DNA of 64,000 bases from an uncultured Bdellovibrionales bacterium (GTDB lineage Bacteria > Patescibacteriota > Minisyncoccia > Moranbacterales > UBA2206). Position numbers and translations under genes: made by a program. The notes under the pieces are model-generated. The model was given only the letters and a program-made list of their open reading frames with translations. It did no database searches and was not told the DNA's origin. Positions 1 to 30,165 of the stretch are shown piece after piece (position 1 is the stretch's first letter; each line of letters opens with the position of its first letter). The stretch lies in NCBI GenBank assembly GCA_964636505.1, contig CAZWRY010000003.1:4871-68870 (forward strand), read 5' to 3'.

Positions 1-786
1 ACCACTGGCTGGTAAAGTTCCTTGGGTCCAATTTATACCATCTGAAGAAATAGCTGTAGTATTGCCACTATATGGAACTGCTACAAATATTCCATTCCCA
101 TAAACCAAGGCATTTGATTTGTCTACAGGCAAAGTTCTTTGAGTCCAATTTATACCATCAGGAGAAGTAGCTGCAATAGTGCTGTCGTATGCAACAGCTA
201 CAAATGTACCATTGCCATAGGCTACCGACGTCCACTTTACATTGGCTGGCAATGTTCTCTGAACCCATGTAGAACCACTTGTTTTGTGCAGTGTCACTTT
301 CCCGCTTTCCCAATCAGTTCCATTAATCGCATCTTCCTGAAGATAATTAGCTTCAGTATTAAAATCAATGTTAGCCGTGCCTGCAGATGGGGTCAGCGTC
401 AATTCCGTTCCAGCTGTAACACCGGCATCTTTGGCACTATAGTTTGTCCATCCGGTCTGGTTACTATTGTGATTAGGATTATTAGCTGAAATTCCCCCAC
501 TCCAGCTGGTTTGATTCCATGTATATGTAGCCCCTTCTGAAACTTGAAAATCTTTAAATATCAAAGCCAGAGAAATGGTCAAAACAAAAACGGCCAAGAC
601 AATTTTTCTGAGTATTTGACCGTTAAACAAAGAAAAACTTTTTGTTGAAAAGTTTTTTGGACTCAAAAAGACGCTTTTTCTTTTTCTGTAATTGGACAAA
701 AAAAGCGTCCTCTTGCCACGAAACAAAATTACAGTTTTCTTTTTTTTATTTGAAATTTTTATCTTTCTTTTGTTTTGCGATTCCAT
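1..786 (-). CDS. Partial (C-terminus beyond window start) membrane-anchored BNR/Asp-box repeat protein
   Basis: Minus-strand frame reads ...WTSVAYGNGTFVAVAYDSTIAATSPDGINWTQRTLP... with repeated SxDGINWT Asp-box-like motifs. N-terminal basic stretch then a TM (VLAVFVLTISLALIF). Candidate ATG at 786 preceded by GGAGA; an alternative TTG near 666. The plus ORF 139..489 is a Cys-rich shadow frame. Confidence 0.5.
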   Translation of the reverse strand, partial: MESQNKRKIKISNKKKKTVILFRGKRTLFLSNYRKRKSVFLSPKNFSTKSFSLFNGQILRKIVLAVFVLTISLALIFKDFQVSEGATYTWNQTSWSGGISANNPNHNSNQTGWTNYSAKDAGVTAGTELTLTPSAGTANIDFNTEANYLQEDAINGTDWESGKVTLHKTSGSTWVQRTLPANVKWTSVAYGNGTFVAVAYDSTIAATSPDGINWTQRTLPVDKSNALVYGNGIFVAVPYSGNTTAISSDGINWTQGTLPASG

Positions 787-15289: not shown

Positions 15290-16672
15290 TTATTGTGCCA
15301 ATTTATTTCTTAAATAATTTTCAAGTTCCGTTATCTCGATTCTTTTTTGCTGCATCGTGTCTCTATCTCTCACGGTCACCGCTTGGTCTTCCAGAGTTTC
15401 AAAATCAACGGTGATGCAAAACGGCGTACCAATTTCATCTTGGCGGCGATATCTTTTTCCGACGTTGCCATTATCATCAAATTCACACATATATTCCATT
15501 TTTAATTTATCGTAAATTTCTTTGGCTTTGGATACCAATTCTGGCTTATTTTTCATAAGTGGGAAAACAGCCACTTTTACCGGAGAGAGTTTTTTATTCA
15601 TTTTCAAAACAACCCTGGTGTCTTTTTCTGTTTTTTCTTCCATGTAAGCATCGCACAGCACGGCCAAGAATATTCTGGCTATTCCGACTGAAGATTCAAT
15701 GATATGCGGCATATATTTTTCCCTATTTACCGGGTCTTGATAAGACAGGTCTTGTCCGGAAAATTTTGAATGCTGTGCCAAGTCATAGTTACCTCTGGCA
15801 TGTAATCCTTCCAGTTCCGCAAAGCCAAACGGAAAATTATATTCAATATCATAGGCTTTTTTGGCATAGAAAACCAGGTTTTCATGTTTGTGCCATTTCA
15901 AATTTTCATCCTTGATTCCCAGATTTTGAAAAAATTTCCAGCGATACTCGCGCAATTTTTCATATTCGCTATTTTCAGCGTCAGGTTTCACAAAGTACTG
16001 CATTTCCATTTGCTCAAACTCGCGTGTGCGGAAAATAAACTGGCGAGCTGTAATTTCATTGCGAAAAGCTTTGCCGATTTGCGCGATTCCAAAAGGAATT
16101 TTCACGCGCGTAGAATCCAAAACATTTTTGTAATTTACATATATACCCTGACAAGTTTCTCCCCGAAGATAAACAGGATTTTTATCCCAATCTTCGGTGA
16201 AGTTCCCCAAATTGGCTTTTACTAGTAAATTGAATTTCTTAACTTCTGTCCAATCGCTTGTGCCACAATCTGGACATTTTATTTTTTCTTTGTTTTCTGA
16301 AAATATTTTATTTATTTCATCTTCTCCCATTTTTTCATCCGCTGTAATTCCAACTCTTTCCAAAAGATGATCCACTCTGAGCCTGGCATGACATTTTTTG
16401 CATTCCGATAAAGGATCGGAAAAACCGCCCACATGCCCGGAAGCTTCCCAGATTTTTGGGTTCATAAAAATAGCACTATCAAGACCCACGATATCATCCC
16501 GCATCTGAACCATGTATTTCCACCATTCTTTTTTAATATTGTTTTCCAGCTCTGTTCCGTATGGACCAAAATCATAAATGGCTGAAAATCCACCATAAAT
16601 TTCGGATGAAGGATAAACAAATCCTCTGCGCTTGCAAAGAGAAACAATTTTTTCCATTAAATTTTCTGACAT
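15290..16672 (-). CDS. glyQS: Glycyl-tRNA synthetase, class II alpha2 type
   Basis: N-terminus RRGFVYPSSEIYGGFSAIYDFGPYG and class II motifs. Confidence 0.9.
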   Translation of the reverse strand: MSENLMEKIVSLCKRRGFVYPSSEIYGGFSAIYDFGPYGTELENNIKKEWWKYMVQMRDDIVGLDSAIFMNPKIWEASGHVGGFSDPLSECKKCHARLRVDHLLERVGITADEKMGEDEINKIFSENKEKIKCPDCGTSDWTEVKKFNLLVKANLGNFTEDWDKNPVYLRGETCQGIYVNYKNVLDSTRVKIPFGIAQIGKAFRNEITARQFIFRTREFEQMEMQYFVKPDAENSEYEKLREYRWKFFQNLGIKDENLKWHKHENLVFYAKKAYDIEYNFPFGFAELEGLHARGNYDLAQHSKFSGQDLSYQDPVNREKYMPHIIESSVGIARIFLAVLCDAYMEEKTEKDTRVVLKMNKKLSPVKVAVFPLMKNKPELVSKAKEIYDKLKMEYMCEFDDNGNVGKRYRRQDEIGTPFCITVDFETLEDQAVTVRDRDTMQQKRIEITELENYLRNKLAQ

Positions 16673-16697
16673 AAGTTTTTATTTTAAAAATGATTTG

Positions 16698-16768
16698 TGG
16701 ACTTAGCGAGAATCGAACTCGCGTCCCCGCAATGCGAATGCGGTGTGCTACCACTATACCATAAGCCC
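16698..16768 (-). tRNA. tRNA-Ala(CGC)
   Basis: Cloverleaf: acceptor GGGCUUA/UAAGUCC with the G3:U70 Ala identity pair; anticodon stem CCGCA/UGCGG; loop UUCGCAU; T-arm GCGAG-UUCGAUU-CUCGC. No encoded CCA. Confidence 0.85.
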
Positions 16769-16796
16769 TAAATATTTAATTATAACAGAAATATTG

Positions 16797-16837
16797 TGCC
16801 TGCTAGCAGGCAGGTTATACCACTAGACCATAGGCCC
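16797..16837 (-). pseudogene. tRNA-Ala-like 5'-half remnant fused to a palindromic hairpin
   Basis: GGGCCUAUGGUCUAGUGGUAUAACCUGCC matches the acceptor-5' and D-arm of the adjacent tRNA in about 24 of 29 positions. It is followed by UGCCUGC-UA-GCAGGCA and a U-rich tail, with no T-arm or 3' acceptor strand. Confidence 0.45.
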
Positions 16838-16862
16838 AAGTATTCTAAGCTATGATGTAGGT

Positions 16863-16942
16863 GAAGTATAATTTTAGAGGCTTATTGTAAAAAATAAGAA
16901 TAGTCTTTCCATATCAATTCGGCTCTAAAATCATATTTCATC
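16863..16942 (-). repeat. Conserved leader hairpin element, copy A (second copy at 25304..25388)
   Basis: Shares the core AUUUUAGAGCCGAAUUGAUA ... CAAUAAGCCUCUAAAAUUAU with copy B; the arms pair, including G-U wobbles, and the loop differs. Preceded by duplicated ATGATTTT 8-mers and an AT-rich putative promoter. Confidence 0.4.
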
Positions 16943-16963
16943 AAAATCATATAATAATAAATT

Positions 16964-18196
16964 TTATAAATATTTTCTATTCTGAAGTTCCTTGGGCAAG
17001 TATTCTTGTTTAGAGCTGTCTTCAAGCGGAGTGTATTTGTAGCCCTTGCTATAACCCAAATCTTTCATCAGTTTTGTTGGCGCATTGCGAATATGCAGCG
17101 GCACCGGCAAATTACCAAATTCCTCTACATCTTTTTTGGCTTTATTATAGGCTAAATAGGCCGAAACACTTTTTTTGCTTTTGGCCAAATAAATGACGCA
17201 TTGCGCCAAATGAACGCTACATTCAGGATAACCCAGTTTATGGCAAGCGTCAAAAACCGCGTTAGCCAAAAGAAGGGCTGTATTATTGGCTAAACCGATA
17301 TCTTCAGAAGCAAAACGCACCAAGCGTCTGGCAATATATAAAGGGTCTTCTCCGCCTTCAATCATTCGCGCTAGCCAATACAAAGCTGCATCCGCATCAC
17401 CGCCGCGCATTGATTTGTGCAGCGCCGAAATAATATTGTAATGCTCTTCGCCGGTCTTGTCATAAAGAAGATGCGATTTTTGTAGAATTTTTTTGATCAG
17501 TTCTTCAGTTATTTTAGTACCTTGTCCCAAGCTCGCCTCCAAAGTATTCAGTGCCATCCGTGCATCGCCATTGGAAAAATTCGCAATCATTTCAAGAGCT
17601 TCCATCGGCACTTTTTTGTTTATTTTTTGGATAGCTCTTTGCAAGATTTTTTCAATATCTTTTTTCTCAAGTCTTTGCAAAACAAAAACACGCGCCCGCG
17701 AAAGCAAAGCGGAAATAACTTCAAAGCCAGGATTCTCAGTTGTAGCTCCGATCAAAATAAGTGTGCCGTTTTCTACATAGGGCAAGAGCGCATCTTGCTG
17801 GGCTTTGTTCCAACGATGAATTTCATCTATAAACAAAACAGTCTTGCGGCCGATCTTTTTATTTTCCTTGGCGCTTTCAATTATTTTAAGTAAATCTTTT
17901 TTGCCACTTACTACAGCGCTGATATTTAAAAAATCAGCTTTAGTTTCTTTAGCAATAATAAAAGCCAAGGTGGTTTTCCCGGATCCGGGCGGACCCCAAA
18001 AAATGAGCGATGGCACATTGTCATTTTTGATTGCCTGGCGCAAAAAAGATTTTTTACCCAAAAGCTCAACTTGCCCAAAAACTTCCTCAAGTTTTTGAGG
18101 CCGGACAGCATCCGCCAGTGGCACATTCTCACTTGTTTTTAGACTTAAATTCGCTTTCATCAAGCCTATTTTACCCCAAAACAAGGCTTTTGGCAA
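16964..18196 (-). CDS. rarA: Replication-associated recombination protein A (AAA+ ATPase)
   Basis: Walker A GPPGSGKTT, Walker B LFIDEIHR, and the MgsA C-terminal domain. Confidence 0.85.
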   Translation of the reverse strand: MPKALFWGKIGLMKANLSLKTSENVPLADAVRPQKLEEVFGQVELLGKKSFLRQAIKNDNVPSLIFWGPPGSGKTTLAFIIAKETKADFLNISAVVSGKKDLLKIIESAKENKKIGRKTVLFIDEIHRWNKAQQDALLPYVENGTLILIGATTENPGFEVISALLSRARVFVLQRLEKKDIEKILQRAIQKINKKVPMEALEMIANFSNGDARMALNTLEASLGQGTKITEELIKKILQKSHLLYDKTGEEHYNIISALHKSMRGGDADAALYWLARMIEGGEDPLYIARRLVRFASEDIGLANNTALLLANAVFDACHKLGYPECSVHLAQCVIYLAKSKKSVSAYLAYNKAKKDVEEFGNLPVPLHIRNAPTKLMKDLGYSKGYKYTPLEDSSKQEYLPKELQNRKYL

Positions 18197-25089: not shown

Positions 25090-25400
25090 AAATTTATAAA
25101 AAATTATTAAAAAATAAAAAACGTTATCCATAAGGACGACGTTTGTCGTGGTACCACCTTAATTTCCCAGCTCTTTGCCTGCAAAGGGTTGGGCTCAATT
25201 TGGCTATTACGGGCTTGCCCGGCAAGTTTTACTCGTCAAAAGACTTTCTTCTTGCGGCTCCGAGGTGATAGCCTCATCATCGCCTTTAACTACATTTGAG
25301 TTCTTCTGAAGATAATTTTAGAGGCTTATTGCAAACAGCATAATTAAAGTTTTTTTCTTATCAATTCGGCTCTAAAATTATCTTCAGAAAATTATCTTTG
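25090..25400 (-). promoter_or_regulatory. T-box riboswitch leader upstream of ileS
   Basis: Minus-strand AAUUAAGGUGGUACCACG matches the T-box consensus AAUUAGGGUGGUACCGCG. A hairpin plus UUUUUUUAUUUUUU terminator follows. Upstream hairpin GAGG-CUAUCA-CCUC exposes AUC (Ile) followed by A. Confidence 0.6.
25304..25388 (-). repeat. Conserved leader hairpin element, copy B (perfect 20 bp inverted arms), at the 5' end of the ileS leader
   Basis: ttctgaagataattttagag ... ctctaaaattatcttcagaa flank a 45 nt loop; shares its core with copy A. Confidence 0.45.
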
Positions 25401-29728: not shown

Positions 29729-30119
29729 GGGGATGCTTGGCATCGACAGGTTGCACATTTATAATAAGCAAGTCGAGAATGATAATAACTCGTTAAAATC
29801 TTATCAAAATGATAAGTGCAAACTTATTTTCAAAAGCAAAGTCAGTATTAGCACAAGCTTTTACTTCAAATTTTGCTCTGTCTTTGGCTTAATTGCCGAA
29901 GACCATCGGTCTGTCGAATTCTAATAGACAGGTCTCCGGTGTTATACATTGGAATAGCTGATTAGATTTTTTCTTGAGTTTGATCAGTAAAACCAATCAA
30001 GAATAGACTGAAAAATTTTTGTTTGTTCATTACCTTCAGTCGAATCAACAAACAAACTAAACTTGTAGAATATTATAGGTTAACAACACTGGACATGGGT
30101 TCAACTCCCATCATCTCCA
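29729..30119 (+). ncRNA. ssrA: tmRNA (SsrA)
   Basis: 5' GGGGAUGCUUGGCAUCGACAGG and 3' GGACAUGGGUUCAACUCCCAUCAUCUCCA form a tRNA-like domain with a G3:U70 acceptor pair. Directly follows smpB. Candidate tag frame 29818-29892. Confidence 0.8.
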
Positions 30120-30165
30120 CTATGTAAAATAATAATTTAACACCAAATATATTAGAAGAGGACCA

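Follow-up and report, generated by a model that had tools for sequence, protein, structure and literature searches.

A tRNA-like fragment beside tRNA-Ala(CGC) in a Patescibacteria genome as a probable decayed relic of tRNA gene invasion and replacement

The window analysed in this work, 64,000 nucleotides of contig CAZWRY010000003.1 (assembly GCA_964636505.1) from an uncultured bacterium of the order Moranbacterales, holds an intact tRNA-Ala(CGC) gene just upstream of glyQS and, further upstream, a 24-nt tRNA-like piece (16837..16814) that runs into a palindromic hairpin; all features of the locus lie on the minus strand. A first-pass annotation, made from the letters alone, had described the piece as a duplicated half of the adjacent tRNA. 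Sequence comparison with relatives identifies it instead as the leftover of a different, older allele: it is identical at 24/24 positions to the orthologous tRNA-Ala(CGC) of a genome from the same genus and at 20/24 to its neighbour, and therefore the piece marks the resident gene and the intact tRNA is the incomer. The piece is very probably the surviving 5' end of the original tRNA-Ala(CGC), which was interrupted twice, replaced by an allele carried on a cassette, and then decayed. We conclude that the feature is no regulator but what remains, after decay, of a tRNA gene that was invaded and replaced.

Results

The genome holding the window (G000; 783 kb, 37% GC, 96.6% complete) was compared with 319 genomes of the order, among which G001 and G002 belong to the same genus, G269 to another genus of the same family, and G013 to the genus of G269. 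ARAGORN and Rfam (cmscan, E up to 10) were used for RNA genes, BLAST and tblastn for homologous loci, and NCBIfam and PF profile searches for proteins. With 16840..16660 as the query, 172 of the 319 genomes matched, most of them with the tRNA only. The arrangement is no assembly artefact, since a 625-nt contig of the public DNA run X16, which is not flagged as a possible source, spans 16344-16968 with zero differences; contigs of X13 end at the palindrome, as is expected of a repeat. Public DNA runs that contain the locus number 16, from 14 studies.

The first 24 nt of the uninterrupted tRNA-Ala(CGC) in G001 are those of the piece, and G002, G012 and the outer gene of a composite locus in G269 each agree with it at 23/24 positions. 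The similarity to the adjacent tRNA is real but lower than first described: about 24/29 had been given, and we count 21/29 over the longer stretch. In the whole genome, only three sites match the first 24 nt of the tRNA at 19/24 or better, namely the tRNA itself, the piece, and tRNA-Ala(GGC); therefore the resemblance is genuine, and the chance likeness considered in the annotation can be set aside. Neither ARAGORN nor cmscan (E up to 10) reports a tRNA in the piece and hairpin, in agreement with the earlier statement that a T-arm and a 3' acceptor strand are missing there.

Tested as a tRNA remnant, the piece matches an orthologous functional gene at the orthologous position. In G001, G002 and G012, the gene order is a RarA-like gene, a 61-nt dispersed repeat (in G001 and G002), and a single uninterrupted tRNA-Ala(CGC), and the stump has the same position relative to the 61-nt repeat and the RarA-like gene as the orthologous tRNA. 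The RarA-like gene is an upstream anchor common to G001, G002, G012, G269 and G013 (tblastn identity 79-84%). The flanking proteins are 83-86% identical within the genus and are therefore vertically inherited; for glyQS, the amino-acid identity of 85% to G002 and 86% to G001 likewise indicates vertical descent. None of 80 RarA loci in named genome records has a tRNA-Ala(CGC) after the RarA gene, and thus this synteny is informative among close relatives only.

The intact gene itself was described correctly: ARAGORN calls a tRNA-Ala(CGC), scored by Rfam at 60.7 bits, with the G3:U70 pair, A73 and no encoded CCA, and the start codon of glyQS lies 24-25 nt past it. It agrees with the tRNA at the same locus at 54/72 positions in G001, 53/72 in G002 and 57/72 in G012; the tRNA-Ala(CGC) genes of G001 and G002 agree with each other at 67/72. 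Its counterparts are found elsewhere, at 70/72 in the inner tRNA of the G269 composite and at 87-95% identity in tRNA-Ala(CGC) of other families (G046, G016, G023, G045, G128). On these identities, the intact tRNA is foreign to the genus and represents an incoming replacement allele. The 3' flank of the tRNA is a variable spot, the distance to glyQS being 25 nt in G000 and 180 nt in G002, while G001 has a 2.6-kb insert (L030 1903-4493). The open reading frames (ORFs) of that insert seem DHH- and NUDIX/kinase-like by translation alone, with no family search, and among the translations read, likewise with no family search, none was integrase- or recombinase-like.

One match in the 319-genome search covers stump, palindrome, spacer and tRNA together (85% identity, E = 1.7e-45). 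It lies in G269, with the RarA-like gene (82% amino-acid identity) directly upstream, and here the composite is intact. An old-type 5' part and a 20-nt palindromic insert come first; positions 24 to 33 (U33) of the old gene follow, then a complete tRNA-Ala(CGC) framed by a left arm and a complementary right arm, and last the remainder of the old gene, which runs from C34 to the 3' end. The palindromic insert sits after position 23 of the old gene, and the tRNA-bearing insert, 115 nt long and bounded by inverted repeats, after U33; the arms form 11 pairs, one of them G-T. Removal of the 20-nt and 115-nt inserts in silico leaves 72 nt, folded by ARAGORN as a perfect tRNA-Ala(CGC), and both inserts are therefore exact. 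The rejoined outer gene agrees with the genes of G001, G002 and G012 at 66-68/72 positions. No target-site duplication or loss was seen at either insert.

G000 and G269 share the position of the palindromic insert (18/20 identical) and the incoming tRNA; G000 lacks the arms and the whole 3' half of the old gene. The annotation had proposed a scar of an integration or of a tRNA gene rearrangement, and a comparison with relatives for an island between the two copies. In kind, the scar stands; its expected form does not, because relatives have no island between the copies and in G269 the new tRNA sits within the old gene. At this locus, G013 has the arrangement in mirror image: the RarA-like gene is immediately followed by an incoming tRNA, which is of a third type, and beyond it come two right arms with an old 3' half each.

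The pattern recurs. A partial tRNA-Ala(CGC) beside a complete one was found in 22 genomes (14 by BLAST, 5 by eye and 3 further), a lower bound from which no rate follows, as the loci are no random sample. In the usual form, a complete tRNA with an arm on either side separates the old 5' half, which extends to U33, from the old 3' half; double nests occur in G128, G046 and G127, and a triple nest in G288. The arms vary in sequence among genomes yet remain complementary: a perfect inverted repeat of 9-14 nt surrounds the inner tRNA in 8/10 tested two-half composites, compared with 0/43 other tRNA-Ala(CGC) loci with a perfect inverted repeat of at least 9 nt. Old copies are visibly dead in several genomes, with an altered anticodon region (G160, G046) or missing halves (G000, G013, G225), and further palindromic hairpins are found in their D- and T-loops. 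We also examined the junction motif CATTTTYACCCCR, which gave 86 matches in 74/319 genomes against 23 for the reversed control; only 3/8 sampled places were real composites, so that the motif was dropped as too noisy for a census.

The insert need not carry a tRNA. In G018 (L203 about 250-480, minus strand), an insert bounded by TTCACCCCGC.../...GCGGGGCAAG occupies the anticodon loop of a tRNA-Val-like pseudogene and contains none, and D-loop inserts in G219, G227 and G246 end in termini of this kind. Such termini suggest a family resembling miniature inverted-repeat transposable elements (MITEs); of the marks of a MITE, the tRNA-bearing insert shows terminal inverted repeats (8/10 composites) and no target-site duplication (G269).

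Other isoacceptors are affected as well. In G000, a complete tRNA-Gly(CCC) has an old tRNA-Gly 5' part on one side and an old 3' half on the other (C4 21700-21890, minus strand; L075 about 701-891), and the old 5' part carries a copy of the palindrome at about position 26, a place equivalent to that in the window. The tRNA-Gly(CCC) locus is nested in G001 and G002 too, with other outer halves, and the outer gene of G002 looks intact. A second such locus of G000 (C8 25464-25622, minus strand; L076 about 565-723) consists of a 20-nt tRNA-Thr stump, a perfect 20-nt palindrome, a decayed rest and a complete tRNA-Thr(CGU). This stump is identical to the initial 20 nt of the tRNA-Thr that lies inside a nested locus of G002 (L084); three generations are thus visible, which points to serial replacement. 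The nested pattern was also observed for tRNA-Val(CAC) in G154 and G161. All four affected isoacceptors (Ala-CGC, Gly-CCC, Thr-CGU, Val-CAC) have C34, and the genome holds their U34 partners, which may let the C34 loci tolerate disruption. In the literature, we found no account of tRNA genes nested in bacterial tRNA genes, nor of this palindrome.

The perfect 7-2-7 palindrome behind the stump was correctly reported, but its sequence indicates a separate insert, a copy of a dispersed repeat, and not a fused part of a tRNA. The consensus of the repeat is about CCTGCCTRCCGGYAGGCAGG, to which the copy in the window is identical at 16/20 positions. Nine other copies, each a GC-rich palindrome of 16-21 nt, make ten in G000, and a loose regular expression yields 21 matches in this genome against 0-3 across 20 shuffles. 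The pattern CCTGCC-N8-GGCAGG occurs in 183/319 genomes of the order, with 1 to 69 copies and nearly always the same interior; the reversed-pattern control gives 0-1 per genome.

The short palindromic repeats of bacteria include the repetitive extragenic palindromic (REP) and bacterial interspersed mosaic element (BIME) types. The present palindrome resembles them: it is short (20 nt), GC-rich against an AT-rich genome background, dispersed in many copies, highly conserved throughout the order and often located within other inverted repeats. Unlike for REP sequences, no cognate gene similar to the REP-associated tyrosine transposase (RAYT) was linked to it, and its copies also occur within tRNA pseudogenes and an integrase ORF. 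G000 has no Y1 transposase match (PF01797); four relatives do, and in G269, where an IS200-like gene is clear, the palindrome repeat does not border that gene, which leaves a link between RAYT and the palindrome unsupported.

In G000, 3/9 other copies have a tRNA gene no more than 100 nt away, a distance that applies to only 1.6% of the genome (binomial P = 3e-4). As a rule, specific targeting of tRNA genes was nevertheless dropped after G013 had been examined, and we take the palindrome to be a small repeat of general distribution, preserved where the DNA is dispensable, as in dead tRNA copies. Several G013 copies lie between other inverted repeats or within larger repeats. In G000, a 21-nt variant (L094 1778-1798; C6 22909-22929) is found within a stop-free frame of 284 aa that matches Phage_integrase, apparently as an insertion that keeps the reading frame of a coding gene, and another copy (L077 about 561-650; C5, minus strand), just after tRNA-Pro(GGG), sits in an apparent tRNA 3' fragment interrupted in the T-loop.

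Coordinates of the locus are collected in Table 1. Position 24 of the old gene (C, 16814) can be assigned to the stump or to the insert, and the starts of the 24-nt piece and of the intact tRNA are 69 nt apart.

Table 1 Features of the tRNA-Ala(CGC) locus and other copies of the 61-nt repeat (window coordinates unless a contig is named).
Feature	Position	Strand	Basis
Intact tRNA-Ala(CGC)	16697..16768	-	ARAGORN; Rfam RF00005 60.7 bits (gathering score 29)
glyQS-type glycine--tRNA ligase ORF	16672..15290	-	NF003211, 635 bits, cut-off 312
Stump of resident tRNA-Ala(CGC), positions 1-23	16815..16837	-	Identity to orthologous tRNA
Perfect 7-2-7 palindrome TGCCTGC-TA-GCAGGCA	16812..16797	-	Sequence reading
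20-nt palindromic repeat copy, decayed	16795..16814	-	16/20 to consensus, 18/20 to G269 copy
AT-rich spacer between palindromic insert and intact tRNA	16769..16794	-	Loose alignment to G269
61-nt dispersed repeat (ATTTTAGAGCC...GCCTCTAAAAT)	16871..16931	-	5' of stump
RarA-like AAA+ ATPase	16964..18196	-	NCBIfam PRK13341 models, E = 1.9e-119, under equivalog cut-off
Other 61-nt repeat copies in G000	about 25307-25384; C2:41843; C7:18339; C7:24233; C7:29293		

Between the 7-2-7 palindrome and the intact tRNA lies an AT-rich stretch of 28 nt (16796..16769), in which the spacer aligns loosely with the 5' strand of the old anticodon stem and the left arm of G269. The spacer holds TGTTATAAT (16787..16779), which resembles an extended -10 element and is at best a putative promoter; having no -35 element, the site was not listed by the promoter scan. 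Another promoter-like site, 16911..16884, lies within the 61-nt repeat, and the scan total of 3 is not above the 2.7 expected from shuffles. Besides the tRNA, Rfam at E up to 10 returned nothing from 16400-17200 except chance microRNA-like matches.

The 61-nt repeat was observed in six copies in G000, each flanked by variable inverted repeats, and in G001, G002 (5' of the tRNA in both) and G009. Its copies appear to be inserted in hairpin loops or to carry a covarying outer stem; the repeat has no Rfam match, and its consensus fold, for which the 5' parts of some copies were cut off, shows an inner 9-bp stem only. Elsewhere in the window, a tmRNA gene (29729-30120, plus strand; tag peptide ANLFSKAKSVLAQAFTSNFALSLA) confirms that the genome is bacterial.

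Discussion

From these results, a history of the locus may be proposed. A copy of the 20-nt GC-rich palindromic repeat would have entered the old gene after position 23, and an insert of about 115 nt with inverted-repeat ends would have entered exactly after U33, at the DNA level, bringing with it a complete tRNA of another allele. The new tRNA would then have taken over the function of the old gene, with the promoter of that gene driving its transcription and with RNase P and the enzymes of 3' maturation releasing the inner tRNA. Transcription from the old promoter is inferred because the short arms have no promoter-like sequence, whereas the 61-nt repeat has a promoter-like site; that site may drive the tRNA transcript, although the evidence for this is weak. 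With the old halves dispensable, the 3' half would have decayed or been deleted in full in G000, along with the anticodon-stem strand and both arms of the insert, and deletion of most of the spacer would have brought glyQS within 25 nt of the tRNA. The stump and the palindrome most likely have no function of their own and are merely part of a 5' leader that RNase P removes from the precursor.

Several observations weigh against this history. In G013, 0/20 palindrome copies examined (of 31) are near a tRNA or a recognisable fragment of one. The homology between the G000 spacer and the G269 arm depends on a loose alignment. Public metatranscriptome contigs (X17, X19) cover only the glyQS part, 16326-16654, so that the role as a 5' leader has to be inferred. 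No enzyme that might move the cassette was found: G000 has no Y1 transposase match and the contig no integrase match. Neither insert shows a target-site duplication, unlike ordinary transposons. Finally, G001 and G002, of the same genus, are free of the inserts, while G269, of another genus, has them; the history thus requires that a composite allele was transferred, that insertion took place independently at both positions, or that the inserts were lost precisely, and we do not decide between these.

For the order as a whole, we tentatively put forward a broader scenario, to which we attach somewhat less than even probability. Genes of C34 isoacceptor tRNAs would be invaded repeatedly, mostly after U33 as judged from the clear tRNA-Ala junctions, by inverted-repeat cassettes of about 115-130 nt, each with a complete copy of the same isoacceptor and apparently expressed from the host promoter. 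These cassettes would act as selfish tRNA elements that compensate for their own damage and give nests up to three deep, or else would be a new kind of protein-dependent bacterial tRNA intron with a tRNA inside; the locus in the window would be the decayed end state of one such event.

The alternative that survives best, although we regard it as unlikely, is that the outer gene is or was a functional intron-containing tRNA, the inserts being RNA introns cut out by an endonuclease, with RtcB joining the ends, and the stump being exon 1 of a gene whose exon 2 has been lost in G000. The exact inserts of G269, whose joined exons form a perfect tRNA, fit this explanation, as do the pairing arms and the intact look of the outer tRNA-Gly(CCC) in G002. 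The junctions fit too: the insert begins directly behind U33 and has G as its last residue in G269, G128, G160, G046 and G227, both junctions being lost in the window. The RNA ligase RtcB was detected in 5/5 genomes tested (about 0.8-1.1 Mb), in G000 at C10:17983-19347 and in two copies in G046. In addition, a true intron exists in this genome. The only tRNA-Phe(GAA) of G000 (L074 798-1117; C22, minus strand) has a 247-nt group I intron in its anticodon loop (RF00028, 76.7 bits), with junctions compatible with splicing at 33/34, i.e. after U33 with the intron ending in G. ARAGORN at default settings misses this gene, the only tRNA-Phe of G000, and reports the composites as single genes.

Other observations, however, speak against splicing of the composites. 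The tRNA splicing endonuclease family (PF01974) was found in 0/5 genomes, the 4 archaeal controls being positive, and no group I core (RF00028) was detected in six composite loci (L032, L033, L021, L010, L054, L073) at E up to 0.01, nor in the window region. Moreover, many outer copies are dead (G160, G046, G000, G013, G225) or consist of ill-fitting halves (tRNA-Gly of G000), and each interrupted copy that was seen has a complete copy beside or inside it. In the window, the 3' half is gone, and therefore the outer gene cannot be functional here. Inspection of the junctions of G269 and G037 by eye, no dedicated program being used, showed no 3-4-3 bulge-helix-bulge motif.

The composites can also be compared with known introns. 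Like them, group I tRNA introns, which are common in metagenome-assembled genomes of unnamed phyla, lie in the anticodon loop after U and end in G; unlike the group I introns, the tRNA-bearing inserts measure only about 115-130 nt, have a tRNA gene as their interior and contain no ribozyme core. The Williams preprint describes group I introns in tRNAs and no nested tRNAs. The accessible parts of PMC10714607 deal with transposing tRNA introns of archaea and, for bacteria of the candidate phyla radiation, with rRNA introns only. The disrupted archaeal tRNAs presented in those parts, with multiple or transposing introns or split into pieces with paired leaders, are similar in having short hairpin inserts at several positions (D-loop, near 25, anticodon loop, T-loop), related inserts in different tRNAs, and paired sequences adjoining the halves. 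As far as those parts go, our loci differ in their bacterial hosts, in the lack of the splicing endonuclease (0/5), in their redundant and often decayed copies, and in the complete tRNA within the insert.

Rather less probable is an origin of the new tRNA from foreign DNA through an ordinary recombination event, either illegitimate or guided by homology on one side, without a discrete mobile cassette, the stump being the unreplaced end. The foreign allele, the variable 3' flank (25 nt, 180 nt, 2.6 kb) and the failure to find a transposase for the cassette would agree with such an event. It leaves unexplained, however, the exact U33/N34 insertion in many genomes, the arms that are diverse in sequence yet complementary, the double and triple nests (G128, G046, G288), and the insert of G018 that has no tRNA.

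It is very improbable that the stump and hairpin form a functional cis element, as the annotation had suggested in proposing a tRNA-like decoy or an attenuator-like element that ends in a terminator, or else a signal for processing the tRNA-glyQS transcript. The piece does lie in the likely leader of a tRNA-glyQS unit, and the terminator consensus scan lists the hairpin (6 pairs, 4 of them GC; tail CAATATTTCT). This listing is weak, with 2 matches in the region against 0.8 expected, and what had been called a U-rich tail, CAAUAUUUCUGUU, is a poor one. The fold of 16845..16690 is not more stable than shuffled sequences (z = -1.36; 21/200 shuffles at least as good), G001 and G002 have the same genes without the element, the sequence after the hairpin has a different content in G269, and the hairpin is accounted for as a decayed copy of the repeat family.

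tRNA genes are classic integration sites, and partial tRNA copies, the att-site duplications, mark the borders of integrated islands and prophages. Such repeats normally comprise the 3' part of the tRNA, are identical to the intact gene and flank an island that carries an integrase. The window resembles them in having a tRNA fragment beside an intact tRNA as the footprint of a DNA insertion; it differs in the repeated 5' part, the different allele, and incoming DNA of only about 115 nt that lies within the old gene, contains a whole tRNA and has no integrase nearby. An att-site scar of an integrase-borne island, or a local duplication of the 5' end of the adjacent tRNA, has almost nothing to recommend it beyond this general likeness and the five tyrosine-recombinase matches (PF00589) of G000, given that none of these matches is on contig C3 (serine recombinases were not searched), that the piece is closer to the orthologue (24/24) than to its neighbour (20/24) with 69 nt between the starts, that no relative has an island here, and that the 2.6-kb insert of G001 lies 3' of the tRNA and shows no integrase-like ORF by translation.

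Taken alone, the decayed relic of the invaded tRNA gene is a harmless gene remnant, to be annotated neither as a regulatory element nor as a tRNA. Its locus, however, exposes a recurrent and precise breakage of tRNA genes in the ultra-small genomes of Patescibacteria and their replacement from within, in which two small structured kinds of insert are seen: a 20-nt palindrome conserved order-wide, and cassettes bounded by arms, some holding a tRNA and some not. Should the cassettes prove mobile, each would be an element that destroys a gene and brings a spare of it; should the outer genes prove to be spliced, theirs would be the first tRNA introns of the protein-spliced kind in bacteria. Both cases have consequences for the turnover of tRNA sets by horizontal transfer in reduced genomes and for tRNA gene finding in metagenome-assembled genomes.

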